From IMG/VR virus record IMGVR_UViG_2579778982_000025, positions 1 through 20,390 of that record: a DNA stretch of 20,390 bases; one strand, given 5' to 3'. The notes under the pieces are model-generated. The model had not been told where the DNA came from and did not search any database. It saw nothing but the letters and a program-made list of their open reading frames with translations. Position 1 is the first letter of the stretch; each line of letters begins with the position of its first letter. Shown one piece after another: positions 8,998 to 20,390 of the stretch. The translations under genes were made by a program, and so were the position numbers. The stretch comes from a virus (taxonomy: Duplodnaviria; Heunggongvirae; Uroviricota; Caudoviricetes).

Positions 8998-9085
8998 CTG
9001 AAATGTCTTTTTCAAGACCTTGCCAATAAGCTAAACAAAAATGTTTAATCATTCGCCTAAAAAAACACCAGTCACTATTATTTAT

Positions 9086-9186
9086 ATAATTATATATTTA
9101 TATAAAAAGTGCTTTACAGGTGGGAAAAAATTTCCTAAGGTTATACCCGAAACCGAGCGATACCCGCCCTGGTTAAACCGGAGATA
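9086..9186 (+). promoter_or_regulatory. repeated promoter / 5'UTR cassette, copy 1
   Basis: Near-identical to 19153..19252. Contains TTTACA - 17 bp - TAAGGT (TATGGT in copy 2) promoter-like hexamers, a ~55-nt leader and a GGAG RBS, preceded by AT-rich palindromes. Confidence 0.5.
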
Positions 9187-9191
9187 ACCCG

Positions 9192-9572
9192 ATGAGCATG
9201 ATTAAAATCCGCAAAAACGCTTTCCTTAAAATTCAAACTATCCTGGCTGGTTCTGTTGGCGTGATTTGCCGTTCTTCTTCAAGCCGCATCGATGACGGCT
9301 ACGATGATGAGTACCGTGTGTCCTCGTGCGATGAGGCTTTAACCTGGCTGAAGGAGAATCAGGAACGTGCCCAGGTATATCTGGAAACAGAGAACGGCAA
9401 TCAGATGCTGCGTATTAGCGGTCGTTATGGATTTGAAACTACATTCATGGCCTATTTTAATCAGGCTTACTTTGACAAGGAGTTGGCCTGGTACACTGAT
9501 CGCATGAGCAAAAGCGAGCCAGCCCCGATTACACCGCCGAACAATAAACCATTTTTATTCCTCGTTAAGTAA
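9192..9572 (+). CDS. hypothetical protein
   Basis: 126-aa ORF driven by the repeated promoter cassette. Acidic, no recognisable motif. Confidence 0.5.
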   Translation: MSMIKIRKNAFLKIQTILAGSVGVICRSSSSRIDDGYDDEYRVSSCDEALTWLKENQERAQVYLETENGNQMLRISGRYGFETTFMAYFNQAYFDKELAWYTDRMSKSEPAPITPPNNKPFLFLVK

Positions 9573-9580
9573 ACACAATA

Positions 9581-9607
9581 CGCAAAGTGTCATTTTGACA
9601 CTTTGCG
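9581..9607. promoter_or_regulatory. 27-bp perfect palindrome (hairpin or operator)
   Basis: cgcaaagtgtca-ttt-tgacactttgcg, 9 nt after the 9192..9572 stop and 29 nt before the XRE-family gene. No U-tract follows, so it is an operator or RNA stability element rather than a classic terminator. Confidence 0.4.
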
Positions 9608-9635
9608 AGTGTTAATATTGTGCGAGGAGGATGCT

Positions 9636-9908
9636 ATGACGGGTTATGAATTGAAATTATGGCGTCGTGGGATGAACTGGACGCAGGAGCGAGCCGCCGA
9701 AGAATTTGGGATATCGTTGGCTACATATAAGCGATATGAGAAGGGGGAGCCGCCGAGGGTCATTGAGATGGCCATTCGCGTTCTGTCGTTTGACGATATG
9801 GTGAAGGATCTTTCACACCTTGATAAAGACGCGATTCTGTTAAGGCTGCAAACCCTTGTATGGGAAAAGGTTAAAGTGTCGTCAGAATTGGAACAAGGGA
9901 TCAAATGA
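9636..9908 (+). CDS. XRE-family HTH transcriptional regulator
   Basis: MTGYELKLWRRGMNWTQERAAEEFGISLATYKRYEKGE.... RBS GAGGAGG (9624-9630). The ORF-track start 9603 is upstream of the RBS. Confidence 0.7.
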   Translation: MTGYELKLWRRGMNWTQERAAEEFGISLATYKRYEKGEPPRVIEMAIRVLSFDDMVKDLSHLDKDAILLRLQTLVWEKVKVSSELEQGIK

Positions 9909-9957
9909 TCCTTTACGGATCGTTTTATGGTGGTGTAATGTAAGCGCCAGAAAGACA

Positions 9958-9985
9958 AAAACCGCCTTGCCGGGCGGTTTTCAGT
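9958..9985 (+). terminator. rho-independent terminator
   Basis: aaaaccgcc-ttgccg-ggcggtttt hairpin, then tcag. Confidence 0.5.
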
Positions 9986-10543
9986 CTGAAATTTAAATCT
10001 TGCTTGGTAGGCTGGATTTAAAAAGACACCTCTTGATTGGGGCGGCTTTCTTGCGTCTAAAGATAATCAAATCTTTTTGCGCCTGCAACCCCTTTTTTAC
10101 TGGTGCCTGTTTCAGACTCACGCTCGCGTCGTTGTCTTTGCCACTTCGTTGGGTTCGGTGTTTTTGGGCGGAGTGGCGCGCGGGTATGCGTACAAGGGGA
10201 AAGTGTGCTGACGCAAGCCAGGAACAGCGATCTAAACTAAGTCGAGTCTGAGAAAGGCAGGAGTGCGACAACTCGCCTGTGCTCTATGAGCAGAAGAAGG
10301 TATATCAGACGACCAATGGCATGATTGTGGGCCACAGGGCGCACACGGCGGCGAAGCATTGGAAACGATGTGGAGCTATCTGGTGGCATGAGTTCCGGTA
10401 CTCGATCTCGAGCTTTTTTTGATGCTTTTGAGAAGGGGCCGGAACTCCGGTAAAGGGCACCCTGTATGGGGGGAGGGGGGGTTGTGTCTAAAGGAAGATC
10501 CAATACGATATTGCTTTACCCTTATATCTAAAAGGAGATTTCT

Positions 10544-11179
10544 ATGGGGATGCTGGTGGCGTTTATTATTAGCCTGATTTTGTGTTTCTTCGTAGTTCGT
10601 GGTGCATATCGGAAACAATGTGGCCCATCTTCTGGTAGTAAGTTCAAAGCTGTTTTAGTGAGTGGGTTTCTTGGGATTGCTACTTTTGTTGTTGTTAATA
10701 CTCTTGCTGCTGTGGCCTTGATTCCAGAAGACTCCGGCACTACGGCTACTACCGGAGCTGCTTTCGATGGCGTGACCGTAGATAAGTTTAAGCAGCTATA
10801 TAATGATGACCTTGAAGGTATCGCTACATCAGGAAAATCCACCTCCACTATAAGAATTAAGTCAGTTAAACAAGGTAACAACACCGTTGAATTTGCCATC
10901 AATTCATCTGTTAACGGTCGAGCTAGAGTTGATAAGGATGGGAAGATTTCAGAGTTATTATGGCGAGTATCTAAGCCTAGCTCTGATTCCTTGCTTTCTA
11001 TGGCCGTAGCTGTTGAAGTCTTGGATGCATCAAGTGATAGAGACACAGTGATCGCGCAGTTAGAGCAGATTGTTAAATCTGATACGCAGAAAGCTGAGTT
11101 TAAGACTAAGAGAGGCGAGTATTACGTTTCTCGTGACAAATCAGGGCACGTGTCGCTACTGATTACACCGAAATATTAA
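10544..11179 (+). CDS. membrane protein with two predicted N-terminal transmembrane helices, function unknown
   Basis: Strong RBS AAGGAG 7 nt upstream. Hydrophobic segments MLVAFIISLILCFFVV and VLVSGFLGIATFVVVNTLAAVALI, then a Ser/Thr-rich soluble domain. Confidence 0.65.
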   Translation: MGMLVAFIISLILCFFVVRGAYRKQCGPSSGSKFKAVLVSGFLGIATFVVVNTLAAVALIPEDSGTTATTGAAFDGVTVDKFKQLYNDDLEGIATSGKSTSTIRIKSVKQGNNTVEFAINSSVNGRARVDKDGKISELLWRVSKPSSDSLLSMAVAVEVLDASSDRDTVIAQLEQIVKSDTQKAEFKTKRGEYYVSRDKSGHVSLLITPKY

Positions 11180-11188
11180 GAATTGAAG

Positions 11189-11216
11189 AAGCGCCCAAAT
11201 CGGGCGCTTTGTTTTA
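11189..11216. terminator. bidirectional terminator
   Basis: aagcgccc-aaatc-gggcgctt followed by tgtttt, between convergent genes. Confidence 0.6.
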
Positions 11217-12356
11217 TGGTTTTGCACCTGCGGCCAGTTTATCCGCCGATATCTTTATCAGTTCCTGTAGTGTCCTGGCTGGTAGGTTTGCATCCAGTAC
11301 GCTGAGTATGCTGCTGTGATCTGCCTGGTCGACTACTTTGCCTGTCGGTGGTAGTAGCTTGAGCTGAGGATTCAGGTTTTCGTCAAAGCTGATCAGTGCT
11401 CTGGCGTTTCTGAGCAGATCAAGAAGTAAGGCTGATATCACATTTTCCTGAGTCATTGCTGGCAGATTTAGCGCCGCTTTGGTTTTCCCTGTTGCCTTGT
11501 CAAACTCCTTGATTAGTTCCTTCCTGTAGTTCGGTTCCGTTAATAGCCGATTATGCTCTGTTGCCGCGCGGATAATCGTTTTTTCCTGGTACAGTCGTTT
11601 AGCCAGATCACGCTCGTACTGTGTTTTTAACACGCTGCTGATAGCGTTAAAGGCTTCAATGTAGGCCAGCTTGATATCTTTCACGCTTGGACCGTCGATG
11701 CTCTCCATGAGTAAGGTAAATCCGTCTTTTGTCATGCGATAGATTGTTATTTCGCGGTCGCTTCCTTCCAGCGGTCGTTGCTCTTTAAAGAAGTGACGCG
11801 CCGCAGCCGTGCGAGGAATGCGTAGCGCATCGATGGCCATAACGATGGAATTGTTTGTGGTGCTGAATGCCTGGGCAACATCGGCTGAGGTTGTGAGTGG
11901 CTCGTTGTTGCACACTTTAATGTAAAACATCGGTTTGGCGTTGAGCGTATCGACAACCTCACGAGCATTGTTTGGCGAGACGGTAACGGTCGCGGCCGTT
12001 TGCGCGTTCTGGTTGAAGTAGCAGTCTTCCAGCCGTTCGAACACATCCCACGCTTGGTTAGTTTCAAGCATTTTGGCGTGACGTGCAGCCCCGCGTTCGG
12101 TCCAGAGGATTAGTTTTCTAACGTTATTCGCGATGGTTTGAAAATCTCTTAAAGAGATTTTCAAACTTTGGAGATCTGTACCTTTTACAACTATGAAATG
12201 TTTTCCTTCTGTAAACCGGGACTTATTACGGTGGTGATTTCTGTGAAGACATTCGACGCTACAGCCATATAGTTTGGCAAGCAGCTCCGTGGTGATAACG
12301 GGGATCTGGTTATGCAGGATAGGCTGTAGGGTGTTAACGGTCGGAAGCGTTTTCAT
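11214..12356 (-). CDS. phage antirepressor-like protein (ORF6N/Rha-type N-terminal DNA-binding domains, long C-terminal region)
   Basis: 380 aa. N-terminal ...ITTELLAKLYGCSVECLHRNHHRNKSRFTEGKHFIVVKG... resembles ORF6N-type antirepressor domains; a second similar segment ...TTSADVAQAFSTTNNSIVMAIDAL follows. Family assignment is from memory of motifs only. Confidence 0.55.
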   Translation of the reverse strand: MKTLPTVNTLQPILHNQIPVITTELLAKLYGCSVECLHRNHHRNKSRFTEGKHFIVVKGTDLQSLKISLRDFQTIANNVRKLILWTERGAARHAKMLETNQAWDVFERLEDCYFNQNAQTAATVTVSPNNAREVVDTLNAKPMFYIKVCNNEPLTTSADVAQAFSTTNNSIVMAIDALRIPRTAAARHFFKEQRPLEGSDREITIYRMTKDGFTLLMESIDGPSVKDIKLAYIEAFNAISSVLKTQYERDLAKRLYQEKTIIRAATEHNRLLTEPNYRKELIKEFDKATGKTKAALNLPAMTQENVISALLLDLLRNARALISFDENLNPQLKLLPPTGKVVDQADHSSILSVLDANLPARTLQELIKISADKLAAGAKP

Positions 12357-12640
12357 TTTGCACCTCCCATAACTACTTTGGTTACGAGGGAGATTTTTGC
12401 GTCAGAAACAGCGTTATCGTTGCTGGCGATGCGCATAGCTTCGCGCTCGATGATTTCAGCCAGGCGGAATTTATCGGCGTATGAGGCTTTCTTGAGAAGG
12501 ATCTTTACGAGGTTGACGTAATAGTCATGGGGTAAGTTTGTCATGATGATAGTTCCAGTTTTGATATTGGAATAATCACCACCGCTGACGCCAATCAGTG
12601 AGGTGGTGAGACGTACAGGGTTGGCGTAACCGGTCATCAT
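12353..12640 (-). CDS. hypothetical protein
   Basis: Stop overlaps the start of the antirepressor-like gene in an ATGA arrangement, suggesting translational coupling. Start ambiguous between 12640 and an internal ATG (MTNLPHD...). Confidence 0.4.
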   Translation of the reverse strand: MMTGYANPVRLTTSLIGVSGGDYSNIKTGTIIMTNLPHDYYVNLVKILLKKASYADKFRLAEIIEREAMRIASNDNAVSDAKISLVTKVVMGGAK

Positions 12641-12844
12641 GATACCCGGCGAGCCTTACGGCTCCCCCGCACGCCCCACCATAATTCGGGTGTAGCTGTG
12701 CTTTACGCATAAAAAAACCGCTAACGCGGTATGCGCCATGATGATTATCGGGACGCCAATCCCGACCGTAGATTTTGCTACGGCTCGGAAAGTGTCCACC
12801 AATGGCGCATTTATGTCAATACAGCGGGATTTTAACAGACTAAA

Positions 12845-12857
12845 CCACATAGTGTGG
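12845..12857. promoter_or_regulatory. operator-like palindrome CCACA-TAG-TGTGG
   Basis: Same motif class as the cI/cro operators; in the divergent intergenic region 12641-12994. Confidence 0.4.
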
Positions 12858-12883
12858 GTTTGAATGCGGGGCTTTTAATTTTC

Positions 12884-12912
12884 TTGATATGCTAAAAACG
12901 GGAATGTATAGT
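12884..12912 (+). promoter_or_regulatory. sigma70-type promoter for 12995..13534
   Basis: TTGATA (12884-12889) - 17 bp - TATAGT (12907-12912). Confidence 0.5.
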
Positions 12913-12994
12913 TCCTGTAAGGAATCAATTAGTCCTGAGTTATGGTGTTTTGTTAAAGTCGGGAACAAGAAAAAATTCAGTATGGGGATAAAAA

Positions 12995-13534
12995 ATGATT
13001 GAACTGTCAAAAAACTCATGTTTTTCAACCATTCACCTAATGATCATAAAAGAACTTAGGCTAGAAAGAGGTGTGCATCAAGGAGTACTGGCTCAAGCTG
13101 CTGGAAAAACACCAAACGCATGGACAAAGATAGAGAACGGGCAGTCTGTATTAACAGTTGACGCCCTTTTTGGTGCTTTCACAGCCCTTAATATTACTCC
13201 AGTGAATTTCATGTCATTGGTAGAAAATCTTATTCCCGAATTTAACCGTTATGGTTACTTCTTTTTCCCTGGAACAATCAGTCAGGACGAGGATAACCTT
13301 TTACCTCTGATGCTGCGTTACTTTAATAGCAAGGGGTTTGAAGCATTGAGAAATAGGCCATTCGAAAGAGTTAGCATTAGCTCAATGGGATTCTCATTTG
13401 GGGGCGGCATCCCTGTTACTCCAACTGCTGTAATGTATTGTTGCGATGAAGCATATAGAAATTGGGTCGATAACGGTGCTGATGTGGATAATCGAGATTA
13501 TCTGGAGTCATCAACAGGTCGTGGACTGTTTTAA
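12995..13534 (+). CDS. HTH (XRE-like) domain protein with C-terminal domain of unknown function
   Basis: 179 aa. N-terminal LMIIKELRLERGVHQGVLAQAAGKTPNAWTKIENGQSV is HTH-like. RBS GGGGA upstream of ATG 12995. Confidence 0.55.
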   Translation: MIELSKNSCFSTIHLMIIKELRLERGVHQGVLAQAAGKTPNAWTKIENGQSVLTVDALFGAFTALNITPVNFMSLVENLIPEFNRYGYFFFPGTISQDEDNLLPLMLRYFNSKGFEALRNRPFERVSISSMGFSFGGGIPVTPTAVMYCCDEAYRNWVDNGADVDNRDYLESSTGRGLF

Positions 13535-13553
13535 TGAGTGAAGAAACAAAAAA

Positions 13554-13580
13554 ACCGTCCTATTGAGGACGGTCCTTTCG
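13554..13580 (+). terminator. weak rho-independent terminator
   Basis: accgtcc-tattga-ggacggt followed by cctttcg, preceded by an A-run. Confidence 0.35.
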
Positions 13581-13726
13581 TGCTGATCGGATTCGCGGTC
13601 CTTTCAGCATTACGTTGTTGTATAAACAACCACGCAAGCACAAGCAGCAAATTGATTTTACTCAAAAGGTAATAATAGTCCACTATTATACATCAAAAAA
13701 TTGTGGTTCTTGTTGTGTCAGCAAAC

Positions 13727-13739
13727 TCACAGATTGTGG
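13727..13739. promoter_or_regulatory. operator-like palindrome TCACA-GAT-TGTGG
   Basis: Same motif class; flanking aaactcac matches the site at 16685. Confidence 0.35.
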
Positions 13740-13971
13740 GTAGGTTACTGATTTTGTGAAAATAAACTGTTTTTTTCGTTTAATTTCTTTCCTATTACTA
13801 ATCTTAAAATAATCGTAAAATACCTGTGGACCTTCCCGCCGATTCGCACCCGGGCACCGACTTTAGGGGAGGATTTCCTGTTGCCGTACATGCAAGCACA
13901 AGCAGCCGTGCTTGCTCTCGCGTTGTTTTCGTCGGTGGGGATGTCGTGAAACGGCCTGTAAGGGCCACACA

Positions 13972-14094
13972 ATGAAAAAATACTACATGTGTATTTTTAT
14001 CGTTGTTACTGGAGCTTTGTTTACGCCACATGGGGAGGGTTGGAAGATTACTGATAACGCTCTGAATGTGACGATAAACATTAGCAGCAAGTAG
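13972..14094 (+). CDS. small hydrophobic peptide (40 aa), candidate small membrane protein or type I toxin
   Basis: MKKYYMCIFIVVTGALFTPHGEGWKITDNALNVTINISSK. RBS AGGG 7 nt upstream. Strong terminator immediately downstream. Confidence 0.4.
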   Translation: MKKYYMCIFIVVTGALFTPHGEGWKITDNALNVTINISSK

Positions 14095-14099
14095 CGATT

Positions 14100-14123
14100 A
14101 GGCCCCTTCGGGGGCCTTTTTTA
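14100..14123 (+). terminator. rho-independent terminator
   Basis: aggcccc-ttcg-ggggcct followed by tttttta. Confidence 0.7.
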
Positions 14124-14132
14124 TGGTTGAAT

Positions 14133-14282
14133 TTAAACGCTTGAGCGCATTAAGCCTTTCAGAACTGCTTCACGTACCCATTCTGGCCTGGTGGATAGCA
14201 GGGCAAATAAGCGACCAGCTTGCAGCCGTTTGAGGTCGGTTAGACGAGTTTTCAGTAACCGTGTATATTGTTGTTCGGACAT
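14133..14282 (-). CDS. small hypothetical protein (49 aa)
   Basis: MSEQQYTRLLKTRLTDLKRLQAGRLFALL...; ATG 14282 preceded by AAGGGGA. Co-oriented with and downstream of the partition genes. Confidence 0.35.
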   Translation of the reverse strand: MSEQQYTRLLKTRLTDLKRLQAGRLFALLSTRPEWVREAVLKGLMRSSV

Positions 14283-14344
14283 AACAAATTCCCCTTGTTG
14301 TGTCGCGACGGCCAACAGTTGGCGCTGGAGGCCGTCACCTTCTC

Positions 14345-14593
14345 TTACTTCTGGTTGTATTGAGCCTTGAGTAACTCAAAAGATTTTGTCAGCACTTCTT
14401 TCAATGACATATCCATTGAGCTGGCGAATGTTTTGTACTCACGTTTAAATTCAGGGTCGACGTTAAACGCCATTTGTGCCCCACCTGATTTGGTTCTGGT
14501 TGGCGTTTCAGTCGGGTCGAAAACCTGCGGTTGTTCGATCGATGGCGGTACGCCTTTGCTGTTCTTCTTTGGTGGTTTTGATGGTGCGGCCAT
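14345..14593 (-). CDS. ParG-like ribbon-helix-helix partition / centromere-binding protein
   Basis: 82 aa with a basic, flexible N-terminus and C-terminal ...AQMAFNVDPEFKREYKTFASSMDMSLKEVLTKSFELLKAQY, resembling RHH ParG-type partners of small ParA ATPases. RBS AGAGGGG. Immediately downstream of parA. Confidence 0.55.
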   Translation of the reverse strand: MAAPSKPPKKNSKGVPPSIEQPQVFDPTETPTRTKSGGAQMAFNVDPEFKREYKTFASSMDMSLKEVLTKSFELLKAQYNQK

Positions 14594-14636
14594 GTGTATC
14601 CCCTCTTATATAAATCTATAAAACTATAATTATATA

Positions 14637-15290
14637 TTACGCGGCAGTAGTCAGAGCCTCAAGCTGGTTGATAATCCCCTGAATAACGTCGTCTGCCTTT
14701 TTGCGTGGCGCAACGTATGAGCACTCAATGAGGCTTAAGCCCTTATCCTGAGCTTTGCTCAGAGCTGGCTTGTGGGGAATGTACTTATCGACAACAAAGT
14801 ATGGCGTATTAGCCAGGTACTCTTGGGCTTCAATGTAGTCGGCTTCGTTTTCAGCCGCGCCTGAGAACACCATGCAAATTTTCTTGATTGGCACACCCTT
14901 TTTAACGATGCCATGAGCTGTGTTAACGGTGGTTTCCAGGTCATCGGTAGAGAATCTGGTTGGCAAAATAACCATATCCAGAAATTCAGAGAGCTTCGGT
15001 ACTGATTCAGATGCGTAGGCACCGCCATCGACGATAACCAGGTCGTATACTTCTGATTCGATGATTTTCTGGACTTGTGATGGTGTGCCGCACGGCTGCG
15101 CCGCGATTGCAGGTTCGATATTGTTGGCCATTCTGCGTTGTACCCAACGCGTTACCGTTCCGTTAAGCACATCCATATCGATCAGGCATACATTCCAGCC
15201 GGCCTTTGCATAAGCAACTGCTAAAGCACGGGCAATTGTTGATTTGGTTACGCCGCCTTTTCCGTTGAAAATACCTACAGAGATAGTCAT
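14637..15290 (-). CDS. parA: ParA-family partition ATPase (small type Ib, deviant Walker A)
   Basis: MTISVGIFNGKGGVTKSTIARALAVAYAKAGWNVCLIDMD... has the KGGxxK[ST] deviant Walker A at the N-terminus. 217 aa from ATG 15290; the ORF-track start 15305 adds 5 residues without an RBS. Confidence 0.75.
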   Translation of the reverse strand: MTISVGIFNGKGGVTKSTIARALAVAYAKAGWNVCLIDMDVLNGTVTRWVQRRMANNIEPAIAAQPCGTPSQVQKIIESEVYDLVIVDGGAYASESVPKLSEFLDMVILPTRFSTDDLETTVNTAHGIVKKGVPIKKICMVFSGAAENEADYIEAQEYLANTPYFVVDKYIPHKPALSKAQDKGLSLIECSYVAPRKKADDVIQGIINQLEALTTAA

Positions 15291-15305
15291 TTGTCGAGAC
15301 TCCAT

Positions 15306-15420
15306 GTGTTTGGTTATATAATTCTATAAATCTATATTTATAGAACGAGGTAAGCATAACCAACTTTTTGGCGGATGAAAAGTGTTTTATATAATTATAT
15401 AAATCTATAATCATATAAGC
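15306..15420. repeat. AT-rich palindromic repeat cluster upstream of parA (candidate centromere / partition operator)
   Basis: Two blocks, ttatataattctataaatctatatttataga (15314-15344) and ttttatataattatataaatctataatcatata (15385-15417), built from TATAAATCTATA and TATATAATTATA units. Confidence 0.45.
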
Positions 15421-15440
15421 GGGCGTTAGCCCGCTTGCAG

Positions 15441-15815
15441 TCAGAGGTCAGCTATCGTTGATATCAGTTGATTTGCTAGCTGTCGCTGTTTACGTGAGAG
15501 GGTTAGAGCAGCTTCTGAGCGGTCGCTAAGAGGGGTGTTTTCATCAAGAATCATGAGGCATACAGAAATAATAGCCCTGTTATATGCCATCAATGGCTGG
15601 CACAGCTTCGATACCGCTGGCACATCGTATTGTAAGGCCGTTTTGAGGCAGACTTTTTGTTCTGATGCCAGATGAAGGATAGATTCTATCCAGTCGATAT
15701 CTTTCTCATTATCAATGATTTGGCATAACATACACTCAATCGCTATGTTCAACGCTTGGATTTCGATTCCAGCAGTGATCAGAGTTTCGTTTTTATTGGC
15801 TGTATGTAATTCCAT
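15441..15815 (-). CDS. hypothetical protein encoded downstream of and co-oriented with the repressor gene
   Basis: 124-aa ORF with RBS AGAGG; no motif recognised. An operator-like palindrome lies just upstream. Confidence 0.5.
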   Translation of the reverse strand: MELHTANKNETLITAGIEIQALNIAIECMLCQIIDNEKDIDWIESILHLASEQKVCLKTALQYDVPAVSKLCQPLMAYNRAIISVCLMILDENTPLSDRSEAALTLSRKQRQLANQLISTIADL

Positions 15816-15851
15816 GCGTAGCCTCTTTTATACTTTTACATGTTGTCAAAA

Positions 15852-15864
15852 CCACAAAATGTGG
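15852..15864. promoter_or_regulatory. operator-like palindrome CCACA-AAA-TGTGG
   Basis: Perfect inverted repeat within aaaccacaaaatgtggttttttt, between the repressor gene and 15441..15815. Confidence 0.45.
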
Positions 15865-15907
15865 TTTTTTTGAGCGTAGAAATGCACGGCTTTCGCCGTG
15901 CTGTGTA

Positions 15908-16564
15908 TCATAACCAGTTGACAACACTAACTACGCGGCCAAGAACTTTATAACGCTTAAATTCCTCGTTATTCAGATGATTAGTGTTCATTTCAGCGTC
16001 CCTTTCGGTTGACAGCATAACAGCATTGTCACCCGGTATGACTCTACAGTGCCTCAAAACAACCAGGCCATTTCTGTCTTCAAGGGCATAGATCCCCTCA
16101 TGAATCTCTGTATCGTCTGTATCAATCAGGACTTGGGAGCCAGGGGATATTGTTGGTGACATTAACTCATCGTTGCTCTGGAGAACTGACAGAGACGATG
16201 GGTTGATGTTCTTGCTTCGTAGAATCTCCTGTTCTATCGCCAGCACTGGCTTTTCTCCGGCGTGCGATGCTATGTCATTTTTTATAGCTACAAGCCCAGG
16301 AATAACAGGAGCGTTAGTATTCTGGGGTGGGAACGGGTTATCTGTTAAGCACGCGATATAAGGCGCTGATGCTTTCAGGGCGTGCGCGATTTTCTTGATG
16401 GCAGGTATAGATGGTTGTCTTAATCCGGCCTCATAGTTCTGCAAGGTGCTTAAGCCTATTCCAGTGACTTGCTGGAGATCTCCGGCAGTCATGCCGGATT
16501 GTTTCCGTAGAGTCTGAATGCGCAGACCTATTTCTTTCTTGATGTTCTCGTCGTTGCTTTTCAT
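15908..16564 (-). CDS. CI/LexA-like phage repressor (N-terminal HTH, C-terminal S24 peptidase-like autocleavage domain)
   Basis: 218 aa. N-terminal HTH (LRKQSGMTAGDLQQVTGIGLSTLQNYEAG). C-terminal region with MSPTISPGSQVLIDT and KVLGRVVSVV resembles the Ser/Lys dyad regions of LexA and lambda CI. Divergent from a Cro-like gene, with operators between. Confidence 0.8.
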   Translation of the reverse strand: MKSNDENIKKEIGLRIQTLRKQSGMTAGDLQQVTGIGLSTLQNYEAGLRQPSIPAIKKIAHALKASAPYIACLTDNPFPPQNTNAPVIPGLVAIKNDIASHAGEKPVLAIEQEILRSKNINPSSLSVLQSNDELMSPTISPGSQVLIDTDDTEIHEGIYALEDRNGLVVLRHCRVIPGDNAVMLSTERDAEMNTNHLNNEEFKRYKVLGRVVSVVNWL

Positions 16565-16602
16565 GTCTCATCAATCGTGAATGGTGGGTTATTTATACAT
16601 TA

Positions 16603-16718
16603 CCACATTTAGTGGTTTTCACATGGTAAGACGAGAGGTGGACCACAAATAGAAGGTTATTTTTTGTTTCGCCCATTGAAAAACTCACGATATGTGGTTT
16701 TAATACCACATATCGTGG
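16603..16718. promoter_or_regulatory. immunity-region operators and PR-like promoter
   Basis: Operator-like sites CCACA-TTT-AGTGG (16603-16615), TCACG-ATA-TGTGG (16685-16697) and CCACA-TAT-CGTGG (16706-16718). The last two are inverted copies of each other, 21 bp centre to centre. They bracket a strong promoter TTGAAA (16676-16681) - 17 bp - TTTAAT (16699-16704) reading into the Cro-like gene. Confidence 0.6.
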
Positions 16719-16737
16719 TTTAACTGGAGTTCGTTAA

Positions 16738-17232
16738 ATGACCTTTCAGGAGTGGGTTGACGAAAATGGAGGCCAAATTGGTGTTGCCAGAAAGTTTGGC
16801 TTTACGTCATCACTGATTGGTGCCTGGTATCGCTTCGAGAGATTCCCTCGTGCGGATAACCTGACGCTGCTGGTGGCGTATTCGGAAGGCCGGATTAACG
16901 TCCAGCAATGGGCGGCAGATTTTGCCGAACGTCAGCGCCAGCGTAGCGATGGCACATCGGTTCGGCAGAACAAGATCAAAGGGAATCTCCCTGTTAACTG
17001 CTTATCAAGGCTGAAAGCGGTTTTCTCTGAGCTGGGGATGCCTGCGGAGCGTTGCAATCTACGCGGTCCGCGATTCATTGCTCGCTGGAAACACTCACAC
17101 GTAACCGTTTCAGAGGTTCGTGATGCGATTGCCGTGCTGGAGCTTAAGAATAAAGATTCCAGCGATATCGAGCTGATTCATAAGGAGATTAGCAACGCCC
17201 GGCGTTCAGCACTTGGGAGGCTTGAGGAATGA
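16738..17232 (+). CDS. Cro/YdaS-like HTH regulator with C-terminal extension
   Basis: N-terminus ...GGQIGVARKFGFTSSLIGAWYRFERFPRADNLTLLVAYSEGRINVQ resembles Cro/YdaS-type HTH proteins. RBS GGAG (16726-16729). First gene of the operon divergent from the repressor. Confidence 0.6.
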   Translation: MTFQEWVDENGGQIGVARKFGFTSSLIGAWYRFERFPRADNLTLLVAYSEGRINVQQWAADFAERQRQRSDGTSVRQNKIKGNLPVNCLSRLKAVFSELGMPAERCNLRGPRFIARWKHSHVTVSEVRDAIAVLELKNKDSSDIELIHKEISNARRSALGRLEE

Positions 17233-17744
17233 TGATTCTGGCCTTCTTTGGTGATAATCACCAGATTCAATCGCAGGTGGTGCACTACCTTGATCAAACT
17301 ATTAAAGGATTTGTTATCGATCATATTGATAACGATAGCAAACATCTATCTGTAGATCAGAAAATTGGACGTGTGCAGCGACTGGTTGCCTGCCGTAACA
17401 GACGTGACACCGTAACAGTCGTCACGGGGATAACGGAGGTCATGGAGTACCAGATGTTGCTGCATCGTGGAGCTGTTTTCTGCGTTCTTCCTGGCATTCT
17501 GCCAGCAATTCTTGCTCGTGGTTTTGTCCCTATTGATGAGTCGTTCTTATATGTAACCCCAAGCCGTTCCCTTCTGGATACGGAGGCGAAGCGTCGCATT
17601 TATATGATGCCGGACGAGGCATTTTCTGAATGTTACCGCCGTGAAATGAGGTTGGGTAAACGAGAAGTGTCTGTTGTTCGTGATGGCAGGTTTTTAAGAA
17701 GCCGCACGGTGAAAAGCACCAGAAATGACGGGGGCCATCAATGA
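17229..17744 (+). CDS. hypothetical early-operon protein
   Basis: 171-aa ORF; start overlaps the upstream stop (ATGA), indicating translational coupling. Confidence 0.5.
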   Translation: MMILAFFGDNHQIQSQVVHYLDQTIKGFVIDHIDNDSKHLSVDQKIGRVQRLVACRNRRDTVTVVTGITEVMEYQMLLHRGAVFCVLPGILPAILARGFVPIDESFLYVTPSRSLLDTEAKRRIYMMPDEAFSECYRREMRLGKREVSVVRDGRFLRSRTVKSTRNDGGHQ

Positions 17745-17974
17745 GTAGTTATGTTCGCGGTGCTGCGATGCATTGCCAGAATCCCCAATTCTGGCGCTTT
17801 CTGACCAGTAAAACAGGGAAGAACGTTTCAAACAGTTCTGAGGCCTCTGTGATTCTGCGTGAGTTTTGCGGGATCTCATCCCGTAAAGAGCTGGCAAAGA
17901 ACTACGCGGCCAGAAGCATGTATGTCCAGTTAATCAACGAGTTCAACCTCTTTATCAATGGTAAGGGGCGCTGA
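17741..17974 (+). CDS. hypothetical early-operon protein
   Basis: 77-aa ORF; ATGA overlap with the upstream gene. Confidence 0.45.
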   Translation: MSSYVRGAAMHCQNPQFWRFLTSKTGKNVSNSSEASVILREFCGISSRKELAKNYAARSMYVQLINEFNLFINGKGR

Positions 17975-18378
17975 TGAACGGACGTACACCAACGAAGAAA
18001 GAGAAACTTTATATACAAGCGGTGCTCACTCACGTGGGTTGCATAGCTTGCATTATTGATGGCCGTGAAATTGAGAATCCAGAACTGTGGACGGAGCTGC
18101 ATCACGATCCTGATTACGGCAGCGTTGATGAGAATTGCCACTTCCATAGCTTTGGGCTGTGCGCACCACATCATCGCGGTGTTGTGCCTGGTGGTGGGCG
18201 TGTGCCTCCGCATATTGCCGTTCGTCACCCTCCCCTGAGTAATTGTGCTCGCTTTGTTGAGCGTTATGGCACAGATGAATTTTTGTGTGCGCAGACGTGG
18301 GAGCTGTTGCCGCAGTCAGTTAAAGACGAAATTGGGTTTGATCTTAGTCTTGGTGAAGTACCAGGGGATACCAAATGA
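17974..18378 (+). CDS. Cys/His-rich putative zinc-binding nuclease-like protein (HNH / Ref-like)
   Basis: 134 aa with CIACIIDG ... HHDPDYG ... CHFHSFGLCAPHH pattern; start overlaps the upstream stop by 1 nt. Family is a guess from the metal-ligand pattern. Confidence 0.45.
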   Translation: MNGRTPTKKEKLYIQAVLTHVGCIACIIDGREIENPELWTELHHDPDYGSVDENCHFHSFGLCAPHHRGVVPGGGRVPPHIAVRHPPLSNCARFVERYGTDEFLCAQTWELLPQSVKDEIGFDLSLGEVPGDTK

Positions 18379-18707
18379 GATATACCGGCTTTCGCAAACC
18401 AGCGACTAGGAAAAGCAAATACGGCAATAAAAAAACGGTTGTCGATGATATCGCTTTTGATAGCAAAAAAGAGGCTGATTACTACTGCGAACTGAAGCTA
18501 CTGAGAAAAGCTGGCCGCGTTGTGACGTTTCTTATGCAGGTGCCTTTTCATCTGCCAGGTGGTGTCGTTTATAAACTTGATTTCATGGTGTTTTATGACG
18601 ATGGGACGATTGATTGTGTCGACACTAAAGGTGTGCGAACAGACGTCTACATCATGAAGAAAAAGCAGGTAGAGGCGCTTTATCCCGTCACGATACGGGA
18701 GATCTGA
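18375..18707 (+). CDS. DUF1064-like phage protein
   Basis: 110 aa, ...KYGNKKTVVDDIAFDSKKEADYYCELKLL...YKLDFMVFYDDGTIDCVDTKGVRTDVYIMKKK..., matching my recollection of the DUF1064 phage family. ATGA overlap with the upstream gene. Confidence 0.55.
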   Translation: MRYTGFRKPATRKSKYGNKKTVVDDIAFDSKKEADYYCELKLLRKAGRVVTFLMQVPFHLPGGVVYKLDFMVFYDDGTIDCVDTKGVRTDVYIMKKKQVEALYPVTIREI

Positions 18708-18710
18708 ACA

Positions 18711-19088
18711 GTGAGACGCGATCTGGATAGCTTGTTTGAGCTATGGGCGCTGTGGGTGCGCAATGGCTGCAACGCCCGTAGCGGTTTCGCGTCGATGTTA
18801 GAAATGATGATGGTTACGCGCTGCCAGTTTACCGGAGGAGGCGGCGCACCAAATGACTCACTGGAAACCAGTATCGAGGGAGCGGTGACGGCCCTCACGG
18901 TAGTTGATGAGACTGCGGCGCTGGTTGTCCGAATTGAATACGGGGCGTGGGAGATTCGGGGCCTCGACATAAATGCACCGCATATTGATAAAGCCCACGC
19001 CCTTTCTCTTAGTCTCAGACAGTATCGCCGGAAGCTGGCAAAAGCCAGGGCGTATGTTGTCGACTATTTGAAAAAGCGAAGAGAGTGA
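18711..19088 (+). CDS. possible Q-like antiterminator / late regulator (weak assignment)
   Basis: 125 aa, GTG start 3 nt after the upstream stop. N-terminus MRRDLDSLFELWALWVRNG... is reminiscent of short Q-homologues of lambdoid prophages. Last gene of the early operon, just upstream of a promoter cassette. Confidence 0.35.
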   Translation: MRRDLDSLFELWALWVRNGCNARSGFASMLEMMMVTRCQFTGGGGAPNDSLETSIEGAVTALTVVDETAALVVRIEYGAWEIRGLDINAPHIDKAHALSLSLRQYRRKLAKARAYVVDYLKKRRE

Positions 19089-19152
19089 AAGTGTCATTTT
19101 GAGCTGTTTTGATGGTGTGTAGACATCGGGAACATCGAAAATCTATAAATAT

Positions 19153-19252
19153 ATAATTATAGATTTATATAAAAAGTGCTTTACAGGTGGGAAAAAATTT
19201 CCTATGGTTATACCCGAAACCGAGCGATACTCGCCCTGGTTAAACCGGAGAA
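19153..19252 (+). promoter_or_regulatory. repeated promoter / 5'UTR cassette, copy 2
   Basis: About 95% identical to 9086..9186 (offset ~10,066-10,068 bp). TTTACA - 17 bp - TATGGT, shared leader, GGAG RBS. Confidence 0.5.
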
Positions 19253-19257
19253 ATCTG

Positions 19258-20325
19258 ATGAATAAACAAGTAATTATTTCTGACTGGATCAACAACCCTA
19301 ACAGCCTGTTAAGCACTGATACTGGCTACCTATTACGCCATGTTAATGGTCGTATGGTCAAAAGCGATGAGCACGAAACCTTTTTCTTTGTTGAAGACGA
19401 TGGGCGTATCTATGAGGATGGTTACTCTTATGAAGCCCAAACTGGTTGTATCCCTGCGGAGCTGGTGGACGTAACAGAAGATCTGCGCAAAGCATGGCTT
19501 GAACAGCAGCAGCGCGGAGATGATTACGTAAACACCTATCAGGAACGCCAGAACGCGCGTCTTGCCCGATATATTGCTCGTGCAGAAAAAGCCAGAAAAG
19601 AAGGTGCGGTAGCGCATAAGCGAGCGCATGACCTGTTGGATGTGATCCCGTTAGGCCAGCCGATTTTAGTTGACCATTATAGCGCGAAAGGCCATCGCCG
19701 CCGTTTGTCTAAAGCTGATGCGTTATTCAGAAAAGCGTTTGTTGAATGCGAAAGTAAAGCATCACACTACGAGAGCAAAGCCGCTGGTGTTGGTCGTAAT
19801 GGAATTTCGTCTGATGATCCTGATGCGCTATTTAAGTTGCTTCGTAAGCTGCAAGGCTGCATGAAGTCACACGTCAAAATGAAGGCCGCAAATAAGGCCA
19901 TTCGCAAATACAAAAAAGACCAATTACAGCAGCTTTCTGCATTAATCGATCTCAGGTTTACAGAAAGCGAAGCCAAAGAGTTACTGGCCGGAGATTTCTG
20001 TGGGCGCATCGGATTCCCTTCATACGCACTGAGCAACAATAACGCCGAAATCAAACGACTACAGAGCCGTATTAAGGAGCTTGAATCGGTCAAGTCTGTA
20101 ACAGGGGCACAGCGCGAAGAATACGACGGCTTTTCTATGGAGATAGATCCAGAGGATAACCGCATCCTGTTTTATTTCCCTGGCAAACCAGAGGCAAACA
20201 TTCGTTCGCTGCTTAAATCACGCGCCTTTAAGTGGAGTCCAACCCGTAATGCATGGGTTCGCAAGATTACTCCAAACGCCCTGGCTGATGCCCGATATCT
20301 AAAAGAATCGCTATTGAAAGCCTGA
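19258..20325 (+). CDS. DUF3560-like protein
   Basis: 355 aa from ATG 19258 (RBS GGAG); the ORF-track start 19204 lies in the shared leader. C-terminal half (...DDPDALFKLLRKLQGC...FPGKPEANIRSLLKSRAFKWSPTRNAWVRKIT) resembles DUF3560 proteins of plasmids and phages, from memory. Confidence 0.55.
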   Translation: MNKQVIISDWINNPNSLLSTDTGYLLRHVNGRMVKSDEHETFFFVEDDGRIYEDGYSYEAQTGCIPAELVDVTEDLRKAWLEQQQRGDDYVNTYQERQNARLARYIARAEKARKEGAVAHKRAHDLLDVIPLGQPILVDHYSAKGHRRRLSKADALFRKAFVECESKASHYESKAAGVGRNGISSDDPDALFKLLRKLQGCMKSHVKMKAANKAIRKYKKDQLQQLSALIDLRFTESEAKELLAGDFCGRIGFPSYALSNNNAEIKRLQSRIKELESVKSVTGAQREEYDGFSMEIDPEDNRILFYFPGKPEANIRSLLKSRAFKWSPTRNAWVRKITPNALADARYLKESLLKA

Positions 20326-20335
20326 CAGTAAGCCT

Positions 20336-20390
20336 ACGGCGGGACGTCTCCCGCCGTATATAGAATTATATATTTATATAAATATATAAG
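20336..20390. terminator. hairpin terminator followed by an AT-rich palindromic repeat block
   Basis: acggcggga-cgtc-tcccgccgt (20336-20357), then tatagaattatatatttatataaatatataag, the same repeat family as at 9081, 14607, 15314, 15385 and 19139. Confidence 0.45.

Follow-up and report, generated by a model that had tools for sequence, protein, structure and literature searches.

Four-unit 8-bp repeat arrays in an enterobacterial phage-plasmid as probable sites for a ParG-like partition protein

The six AT-rich blocks that we examine in a 20,390-bp stretch of phage-plasmid DNA (the whole stretch analysed, here called the window; 46% G+C) are probably four-site, 8-bp arrays for a ParG-like protein, which would serve as centromere and operator at the par operon and as shared operators elsewhere. 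The window belongs to a ~48-kb E. coli phage-plasmid of the myovirus type, which is matched in 61 plasmid records and has the reference strain E. coli ATCC 25922, with plasmid NZ_CP009073.1, among its carriers. The whole ~48-kb element contains eight such arrays, every one intergenic. In L001 these eight are the sole extreme-AT stretches, and in L002 there is one extra AT-rich stretch, of a different composition, at 278-308. Enterobacterial phage-plasmids often carry accessory genes, and to our knowledge little is known of how a phage-plasmid keeps its plasmid maintenance and its phage gene expression in step. We found no paper on the ~48-kb phage-plasmid or on vB_YpM_41, from which one array orthologue is used below, in a search of the literature.

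Anatomy of the AT-rich blocks

We begin by considering the blocks themselves. All six exist where the first-pass annotation placed them, to within 1-6 nt, and their positions relative to the genes are as it described. It called them palindromic repeats. The repeats are real, but four tandem units describe the blocks better: each consists of four contiguous 8-bp units in head-to-tail order (32 bp in total) with the consensus TATAKAWW. A true inverted repeat is found in some blocks only (e.g., AATCTATAA-N8-TTATAGATT in array B5), and the opposite strand fits the unit grammar at a 2-bp shift because the unit core is pseudo-palindromic. Both strings quoted for the family are present, TATAAATCTATA at 14609, 15325 and 15398 on the plus strand and 19158 on the minus strand, and TATATAATTATATA at 9083 and 15388.

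The blocks have many TpA steps and are the only 30-mers in the 20,390-bp window with at least 27 of 30 A+T (at least 90%). The motif enrichment test that had been suggested as a check bears the family out: the pattern TATA-N4-TATA-N4-TATA has 11 matches, all inside the blocks, versus 0.00 in 100 dinucleotide-preserving shuffles. All 18 two-unit matches in the window fall in the blocks, as do 30 of the 34 single-unit matches, and the blocks make up 192 bp, or 0.94% of the window. The spacing from TATA to TATA peaks at 8, 16 and 24 bp. Two wider scans were also made. For TATAKAWWTATAKAWWTATAKAWW in genome contigs, the matches listed consist largely of (TA)n microsatellites and of sites in AT-rich MAGs, and are uninformative on the E. 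coli chromosome, and the 15-mer TATAGATTTATATAA is too unspecific, giving 120 single chance-like matches in viral contigs.

The par locus, the small protein and the promoter cassettes

We turn our attention to the par locus, where three of the arrays lie:

14345..14593, minus strand: gene of the 82-aa ParG-like protein, a predicted disordered N-terminal tail followed by an RHH-type C-terminal domain
14605..14636, minus strand: array B2, read on the minus strand as TATATAAT TATAGTTT TATAGATT TATATAAG
14637..15290, minus strand: parA, a 217-aa small Walker-type partition ATPase with no N-terminal DNA-binding domain
15313..15344, minus strand: array B3, read on the minus strand as TCTATAAA TATAGATT TATAGAAT TATATAAC
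15353..15381, minus strand: putative parA promoter, read from the sequence, with -35 TTTTCA (15381-15376), a 17-bp spacer and -10 TATGCT (15358-15353)
15386..15417, minus strand: array B4, read on the minus strand as TATATGAT TATAGATT TATATAAT TATATAAA

The start codon of parA is taken from the RefSeq annotation of NZ_CP062206.1. Its product matches Pfam CbiA (1.7e-12) as well as Pfam ParA and MipZ, and it aligns to NCBIfam ParA_partition over residues 5-206 with 78.6 bits, below the 180-bit cut-off. The 82-aa gene follows 43 bp downstream, and B2 occupies the gap from the parA stop codon to the ribosome-binding site of that gene. The other two arrays sandwich the putative parA promoter. B3 starts 8 bp downstream of the -10 and hence spans about +2 to +34 of the predicted transcript, an operator position, while B4 ends 4 bp upstream of the -35 and stands directly after the terminator hairpin (15420-15435) of the preceding gene. 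The same promoter arrangement recurs in the Serratia, Salmonella and Vibrio relatives. Type Ib features of the locus are the small ParA without an N-terminal DNA-binding domain, the repeat arrays at the operon (three of 4x8 bp) and, at the level of its family, a small RHH-fold protein encoded directly downstream of parA, the predicted centromere binder.

Evidence from its homologues points to the 82-aa protein being a member of a large ribbon-helix-helix (RHH) family with a ParG-like layout. The AF2 model has a disordered tail and two helices (47-59 and 64-80) with pLDDT above 90. We base the RHH assignment on the family because the window protein alone has no Pfam match, ParG included, even at E up to 10. 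Fold searches and phmmer with this protein against PDB sequences found nothing, and PDB profile searches gave weak RHH matches only (SvtR 2kel, E 0.13; ParG 1P94, E 0.55). Among 50 homologues, 18 match Pfam RHH_10, 11 match Antitox_RHH and one matches Pfam ParG (PF09274, E 0.018). An hhalign comparison of the family with the TP228 ParG RHH domain gives E 1.5e-4 and a probability of 51%. The first, word-indexed homologue search found close relatives only; the profile search gives at least 1063 members and thereby defines a large, unannotated family of putative centromere-binding proteins.

The remaining arrays of the window are dispersed, two of them at copies of a promoter cassette:

9075..9106, plus strand: array B1, CTATTATT (degenerate) TATATAAT TATATATT TATATAAA
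9113..9141, plus strand: cassette promoter 1, -35 TTTACA (9113-9118), spacer 9119-9135, -10 TAAGGT (9136-9141)
19142..19173, plus strand: array B5, TCTATAAA TATATAAT TATAGATT TATATAAA
19180..19208, plus strand: cassette promoter 2, TTTACA, a 17-bp spacer and TATGGT, from a promoter scan and alignment
20359..20390, plus strand: array B6, TATAGAAT TATATATT TATATAAA TATATAAG, ending at the window end

B1 has three good units (9083-9106) and one degenerate unit, and in the vB_YpM_41 orthologue the first unit, CATAGAAT, is better. Both B1 and B5 end 6 bp upstream of the -35 of their cassettes, and a third cassette copy with an upstream array lies outside the window. Taking all eight arrays of the element together, four stop 4-6 bp short of a -35 hexamer, on its upstream side, and another begins 8 bp after a -10. 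Cassette promoter 1 was read from the sequence and was placed in an alignment with 8 further copies of the cassette, drawn from three lineages. It has a 17-bp, near-palindromic spacer and is followed by a conserved leader and the start codon of a 126-aa gene at 9192; cassette promoter 2 is predicted to drive the DUF3560 gene (19204/19258-20325) downstream of it. Because the spacer is a second, palindromic operator-like element, another regulator probably acts at the cassettes as well. No complementarity of at least 9 nt was found between the C4 antisense RNA of the element and the conserved cassette leaders.

B6 is preceded by a hairpin (20339-20357). In complete relatives (L002 38352-38399) this array immediately precedes the ribosome-binding site for a 93-aa gene, and the PHROG family that the gene product matches carries the annotation MarR regulator. 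PHROG and NCBIfam searches with the genes downstream of the arrays returned mostly "unknown function", so that a regulon cannot be named.

Combining these readings, we propose that each 8-bp unit would bind one dimer of the 82-aa ParG-like RHH protein. B2, B3 and B4 would form the partition complex (centromere) at the par operon and would also autoregulate it, as in other type Ib systems. B1, B5 and the array of the third cassette would make cassette expression depend on how much partition protein is present, most likely through occlusion of the A+T-rich upstream (UP-like) promoter region by bound protein; arrays upstream of a -35 could also activate instead of repress. B6 and one more array outside the window are placed where other gene groups begin, and all eight arrays may add centromere capacity. 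The binding of the 82-aa protein to the arrays, the direction of regulation and the centromere activity are what we infer in this model. A wider picture can be offered tentatively, as one possibility: a type Ib partition protein may be a genome-wide regulator in an enterobacterial phage-plasmid lineage and, independently, in a Vibrio phage. The eight 4 x 8 bp arrays would then double as dispersed centromeres and operators, coupling the protein dose (copy number or time since entry) to cassettes and gene blocks that include other regulators, with an expression burst on cell entry and a shut-down once the element is established.

Relatives and alternative explanations

In every relative examined, the parA promoter has arrays of the same architecture on both sides. 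They too have an 8-bp period, and the unit sequence varies with the lineage of the small protein, in a sample of ~7 lineages in which other genes have diverged alongside. The small protein of a Salmonella phage-plasmid is 91% identical, and the TATA units are those of the window, reshuffled. A Serratia phage-plasmid (39% identical) has seven sites with TTAAATAW-type units, and homologous promoter cassettes lie downstream of three of these sites. In Vibrio phage VPHZ6, where the identity is 35-38%, the unit is TTCGTKMW, with six arrays that place TTCGT at exactly 0, 8 and 16 bp versus 0.045 expected. Two metagenome contigs have units TAWWTCTT (L259) and TTCKT (L261). When five elements were scanned, TATA-N4, TTCGT-N3 and AAATA were each confined to their own lineage with one exception: plasmid L007 has a single TATA-type cluster at its parA promoter; the arrays of L007 are also TATA-type, and its small protein is only 32% identical. 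The units TATAKAWW, TTAAATAW, TTCGTKMW and TAWWTCTT would make a natural series for studies of how RHH proteins read DNA, and such lineage-specific units could supply orthogonal protein/site pairs.

The first-pass annotation had offered three candidate roles for the blocks. The comparative evidence favors a centromere to which the RHH protein binds and operators for a common regulator, probably both, and disfavors IHF/H-NS-type sites. One could still suppose that the arrays bind the ParG-like protein as dispersed centromeres only, as in N15, the promoter adjacency being incidental and without regulation. N15 has four separate centromere sites, IR1-4 (PMC7205306), an RHH-type ParB needs four contiguous repeats as its smallest competent centromere (PMC9499535), and B2 and B6 stand outside the classical operator positions. 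Such a restriction is unlikely in view of the placement of the arrays against -35 and -10 hexamers (four of eight and one of eight), which Serratia repeats with different units, and of the known RHH centromere binders ParG and omega, which are repressors (PMC3130281, PMC5016525). In L258 and the metagenome contigs L259 and L261 (13-20 kb examined) arrays are found at parA only. Dispersal is therefore not family-wide, and the dispersed copies could have a role unrelated to partition.

The next question is which protein reads the arrays. Four elements were compared gene by gene by blastp: the E. coli-type and Serratia elements, VPHZ6, and an ordinary T4SS plasmid in which arrays occur too. ParA and the small protein are the only proteins common to all four, so that cognate binding by the small protein is the best reading. 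The arrays might instead be operators of a different element-encoded regulator, with the ParG-like protein binding elsewhere; several small regulators do adjoin arrays, and at the cassette promoters one or more further operator-like palindromes are clearly present. The candidates are the 124-aa protein upstream of parA, a 101-aa HTH protein and the 93-aa MarR-family match after B6, and none of them is common to all elements with arrays around parA. Tandem 8-bp units are, moreover, typical of RHH proteins and not of HTH dimers, and no other repeat family that could serve as a centromere was found around the par operon in the window, which together make this second supposition quite improbable.

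Least probable of all is that the blocks are generic A+T-rich promoter DNA or host nucleoid sites (UP, curved or flexible DNA, H-NS, IHF, Fis): their composition and TpA steps, the position of four of them at about -40 to -75 of promoters and the cassette sequence beside the -35, TAAAAAGTG, which we take to resemble a proximal UP subsite, are set against a strict 8-bp register of exactly four units, the same array grammar downstream of a -10 and between cistrons, C and G in the Vibrio and L261 arrays (the Vibrio and metagenome equivalents are not AT-only), the lineage confinement of the three tested unit patterns apart from the L007 cluster, other promoter regions of the window without such a block (e.g., the divergent repressor region 16565-16737), and an IHF consensus, WATCAANNNNTTR, whose single window match is at chance level in coding sequence (15710), none being in or beside any block.

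Comparison with known systems

With the arrays read as sites for the ParG-like protein, the system differs in detail from the known ones, the closest precedents being TP228 ParG/parH, pSM19035 omega and N15. A further likeness is to MetJ-type RHH repressors, which use tandem 8-bp boxes with one dimer per unit and cooperative filling of two to five units. The tandem 8-bp units are shared, and binding of one dimer per unit is what we propose here by analogy; MetJ represses metabolic genes, is encoded on the chromosome, and has no known ParA partner or centromere role.

N15 is likewise a phage-plasmid with several separate sites for a partition protein, for which the eight arrays over ~48 kb would be the counterpart here. 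According to Ravin, Rech and Lane in 2008, its Sop system reportedly also influences late gene expression. N15 differs in being type Ia, with a large SopA, an HTH-type SopB and single 16-bp inverted repeats, and has no RHH protein on 8-bp arrays.

In TP228, ParG binds 4-bp boxes with 4-bp AT-rich spacers, one dimer per box, at both operator and centromere (PMC3130281). As with ParF-ParG, the partner encoded after a small Walker ATPase is a small protein whose N-terminal tail is flexible and whose C-terminal domain is of the RHH type (here at family level); the sites recur every 8 bp (box plus spacer) in direct and inverted orientation; and the family profile of the window protein aligns to the ParG RHH domain, although the protein itself has no significant direct sequence match. 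As at parH/OF, arrays lie upstream of the operon, and the double role of operator and centromere known from TP228 (PMC3130281) would apply here. The unit is TATAKAWW, however, and not ACTC plus spacer, ACTC boxes being absent from the arrays; the arrays have four units and not 8 and 12; and they sandwich the promoter, with one between the genes and five more dispersed over the replicon.

The first-pass annotation noted that a dispersed layout is unlike a single parC centromere, which is correct, yet the layout has precedents in pSM19035 omega (PMC5016525) and N15 (PMC7205306). Omega has three separate parS sites at promoters, with 9, 7 and 10 repeats (PMC5016525), and ParA activation takes 4 or more contiguous repeats (PMC9499535); at several promoters we likewise find arrays that reach this number. 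In both systems the centromere, as proposed here, is split into arrays that coincide with promoters, and one RHH protein would couple partition to the transcription of other maintenance genes. The pSM19035 repeats are 7-bp heptads (WATCACW) on a Gram-positive plasmid, and its delta and omega genes are transcribed separately, whereas here a phage-plasmid has eight arrays of exactly four units with an 8-bp period and another sequence, and parA and the small gene form an operon. If the arrays are as they appear, a single 82-aa protein would couple segregation with the regulation of four or more promoters, as an enterobacterial counterpart of pSM19035 omega.

The six AT-rich arrays and the element that carries them

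We consider six AT-rich blocks (B1 to B6) of the 20,390-bp window, which has 46% G+C and in which only these blocks contain 30-mers with at least 27 of 30 A+T. The first-pass annotation had described the blocks as sharing short units, and this is borne out: when the 8-bp register that fits best is chosen, each block consists of four contiguous units that match TATAKAWW (IUPAC codes) at 7-8 of 8 positions, with B1 of this isolate having three good units and one degenerate. The refined limits in this register are:

9075-9106, B1
14605-14636, B2
15313-15344, B3
15386-15417, B4
19142-19173, B5
20359-20390, B6

The spacing from TATA to TATA peaks at 8, 16 and 24 bp, and a motif enrichment check gives 11 matches to TATA-N4-TATA-N4-TATA in the window, all 11 within the blocks; the figure for 100 dinucleotide-preserving shuffles is 0.00. 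A window scan places two-unit matches inside the 192 bp of blocks in 18 of 18 cases and single-unit matches in 30 of 34. The unit core is pseudo-palindromic, and because the opposite strand fits the same grammar after a 2-bp shift, orientation is set by, and can be read from, only the C- and G-marked variants TCTATAA and TTATAGA; both orientations are present.

Window positions 14000-16700 match 61 PLSDB plasmids by megablast (58 of the 61 at 95-100% identity), nearly all of them from E. coli, non-mobilizable and 44-52 kb in size, as well as the Yersinia phages vB_YpM_39, 41 and 44; E. coli ATCC 25922 is among the carriers (NZ_CP009073.1). The annotated records describe a circular element of ~48 kb in which a structural module of myovirus type, lysis genes and a cI-like repressor are joined by an IncFII-type RepA, a RelE/ParE toxin-antitoxin pair and ParA, and the element is therefore a phage-plasmid. 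No published work on the element or its par system came up in a literature search. Each complete relative carries eight arrays, all of them intergenic, and the two that lie beyond the window are found after the lysis genes and before a third copy of the promoter cassette. The extreme-AT stretches of one complete relative (L001) are the eight arrays only; another (L002) has one extra AT-rich stretch at 278-308, whose composition differs from that of the arrays.

Placement of the arrays and neighbouring features

The earlier placement of two arrays upstream of parA (B4 and B3) and one between parA and the ParG-like gene (B2) holds. Read along the minus strand, the preceding gene's terminator hairpin is followed by B4, ACAC and the parA -35; 8 bp downstream of the -10 comes B3, ahead of the ribosome-binding site and the start of parA at 15290, with the promoter sandwiched between the two arrays. 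B2 fills the 43-bp gap from the parA stop to the start of the 82-aa gene. The elements of the parA promoter are:

15381-15376, minus strand, parA -35 (TTTTCA)
15358-15353, minus strand, parA -10 (TATGCT), 17-bp spacer from the -35

The arrays that had been assigned to the duplicated promoter cassettes, B1 and B5, are indeed found there, each followed by AAGTGC, the -35 TTTACA, a 17-bp spacer, a -10 (TAAGGT or TATGGT), a conserved leader of ~50 nt and the start codon; the third copy of this promoter is outside the window. B6 is located 3' of a hairpin and directly 5' of the ribosome-binding site of the next gene, which has the context of parA, GGAnnCTCGACAA(A)TG. This start context stands directly after an array at parA (15290-15306) and at the gene after B6 (L002 38385-38401) and is kept in the Serratia phage-plasmid pJSRIV006_2 (L003 22096 and 27727), which makes the array plus ribosome-binding site look like a second duplicated module.

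In the cassettes, the 17-bp stretch that separates -35 from -10 is itself palindromic, TGGGA-N7-TCCTA at 9119-9135 and 19186-19202 and, in the third copy, at about L002 44095-44111; it reads as a perfect TAGGAAAATATTTCCTA in Salmonella and as TAGGAAAAAAAGTCCTA in Serratia. A second, dimeric regulator, shared by all cassettes and distinct from the AT arrays, seems to have its operator here. The ~50-nt leaders (9142-9194 and 19209-19261) contain a stem, AACC...GGTT (9151-9174), immediately preceding the Shine-Dalgarno GGAG. Its two outer pairs differ on both sides in Serratia, giving GGCC...GGCC (RNAalifold), a single lineage event that lends the stem weak support. A terminator scan finds a perfect palindrome with 12-bp arms, CGCAAAGTGTCATTTTGACACTTTGCG, at 9581-9607 before a 101-aa HTH gene, and 15 of its bases, AAAGTGTCATTTTGA, are repeated at 19088-19102, 40 bp upstream of B5; in 20 kb a lone shared 15-mer is about what chance would give and may be meaningless. 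The DUF3560 protein under cassette 2 (19204-20325) also matches a primase-annotated PHROG over residues 191-369 (2.6e-37).

Other features of the window include three RNAs above the Rfam gathering score and the repressor gene:

12599-12686, minus strand, C4 antisense RNA (81 bits)
12711-12784, minus strand, isrK (70.9 bits)
13826-14122, plus strand, ryfA (144.7 bits)
15908-16564, cI-like repressor gene (HTH and S24 peptidase)

C4 and isrK lie just upstream of an Ash-like gene (12353-12640) and an ORF6N/Rha gene (11214-12356), an arrangement suggestive of a P1-like immI module for antirepressor control; C4 and the cassette leaders show no complementary stretch of 9 nt or longer. The divergent region from the repressor gene to the rightward genes (16565-16737) has CCACA...TGTGG-type repeats, among them a 13-pair palindrome at 16686-16717, which are presumably immunity operators, and no AT array is present in this region.

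ParA, the small protein and the arrays of relatives

ParA has 217 aa, Pfam matches to CbiA, ParA and MipZ, and no extra N-terminal domain. The 82-aa product encoded directly downstream (the small protein) gives no match in Pfam or NCBIfam, nor a direct one to PDB sequences, and it does not belong to the Pfam ParG family. The AF2 model from a 50-sequence alignment has a disordered tail (residues 1-45) and then two helices (47-59 and 64-80, pLDDT >90). The family contains 62 cluster representatives, mostly of 73-92 aa, in an exhaustive HMMER search and at least 1063 proteins in a profile search. Among 50 aligned members, Pfam matches RHH_10 in 18, Antitox_RHH in 11, 56B_RHH in four and ParG in one, and the family profile aligns with residues 30-71 (the RHH domain) of TP228 ParG (sequence checked against 1P94), gap-free over the helices, with E 1.5e-4 and 51% probability (hhalign). 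Given the tail and two helices, the RHH matches of the family and the ParG alignment, the small protein has a ParG-like architecture and, very probably, the RHH fold. Its candidate beta-strand residues are QMAFNV, and those of the counterpart from Vibrio are PLNFKR. By analogy with ParG, the conserved N-terminal motif of the family, M-A-x-P-x-K-P...K-G-x-P-P, is a candidate ParA-stimulating tail.

The main evidence tying the arrays to the small protein is the comparison of sequences across relatives. A Salmonella phage-plasmid whose small protein is 91% identical has eight arrays, positioned as in the E. coli-type element, with the unit vocabulary unchanged and the units reshuffled. The Serratia pJSRIV006_2, a phage-plasmid of siphovirus type whose backbone is related and whose small protein is 39% identical, has seven AT blocks built on a different, TTAAATAW-type unit with a 4/8-bp period: the parA promoter lies between two of them, three are directly upstream of the -35 of the homologous cassettes, and one precedes a ribosome-binding site with CTCGACAATG context. 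In the Vibrio phage VPHZ6 (ParA 43%, small protein 35-38% identical), TTCGT recurs at exactly 0, 8 and 16 bp in six arrays, where 0.045 clusters are expected from shuffles:

L005 8750, 12230, 13820, 13879, 23024 and 34371, VPHZ6 arrays

Two of these sandwich the parA promoter in inverted orientation and four are dispersed, some in or between tail and capsid genes, and VPHZ6 seems to be an independent instance of array dispersal. The Salmonella Poona plasmid, an ordinary T4SS plasmid (ParA 46%, small protein 32% identical), has TATA-type arrays on either side of the parA promoter and also between parA and the small gene, with weaker AT blocks in further intergenic regions. Of three further phage-like contigs, L259 carries four TAWWTCTT units on the upstream side of the parA promoter and, downstream, an inverted four-unit array; the units of L261 are TTCKT, and the picture in L258 is less clear. 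In the 13-20 kb examined per contig, no arrays were found away from parA. A Tara Oceans plasmid contig has, between its Rep3 gene and the parA/small-gene pair (L260 8900-9260), an extended array whose repeats of about 16 bp (CTTGCTATCTGTCTTT) could be iterons, a centromere or both.

When three unit patterns (TATA-N4, TTCGT-N3 and AAATA) are compared across five elements, each is confined to its own lineage with one exception: the Poona plasmid, itself a carrier of TATA-type arrays, has one TATA-type cluster at its parA promoter. In blastp of all ORFs, the E. coli-type, Serratia, VPHZ6 and Poona elements have no protein in common other than ParA and the small protein. Taken together, the comparisons indicate that promoter-sandwiching arrays with an 8-bp period characterize this ParA/RHH family and that array sequence follows the small-protein lineage. 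Dispersal over the replicon is a lineage-specific elaboration, seen in the enterobacterial phage-plasmid group and VPHZ6.

It is possible that the dispersed arrays are purely centromeric, as in N15. That the arrays serve another regulator encoded by the element is less likely, since the elements compared share only the two par proteins. Generic AT-rich, UP, IHF or H-NS sites (the first-pass annotation had raised IHF/H-NS-type sites as an architectural role and a generic feature of AT-rich promoters as a refutation) agree with the arrays in composition but do not fit their strict four-unit register, their presence also downstream of a -10 and between cistrons, or the C/G in the arrays of relatives; no IHF consensus was found in or next to the blocks, and the other promoters of the window carry no such block.

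Proposed mechanism and known systems

We return to the arrays as sites of the small protein, for which we infer every step past the anatomy. By analogy with the studied systems, each 32-bp array would be coated by four dimers of the small protein. The arrays of the par operon would then support both a partition complex and autorepression, the latter because B3 spans about +2 to +34. The cassette arrays occupy about -42 to -73, adjoining a UP-like TAAAAAGTG; repression by blocking the upstream contacts of RNA polymerase would be the simplest expectation there, with activation as the alternative.

The closest experimentally studied systems are TP228 ParG and pSM19035 omega. ParG binds 4-bp boxes with 4-bp AT-rich spacers cooperatively, one dimer per box, its sites upstream of parFG being an operator of eight boxes and a centromere of 12 (PMC3130281). 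For omega the targets are three separate parS arrays, all coinciding with promoters (PMC5016525), and its activation of ParA requires at least four contiguous repeats (PMC9499535). The type Ib system, the RHH centromere-binding protein, the tandem repeats and the arrays at promoters are of known kinds. What is new is the fixed array format of four 8-bp units, its occurrence at eight sites of a phage-plasmid, three promoter-cassette copies included, and a large unannotated family of what, by analogy, would be centromere-binding proteins.
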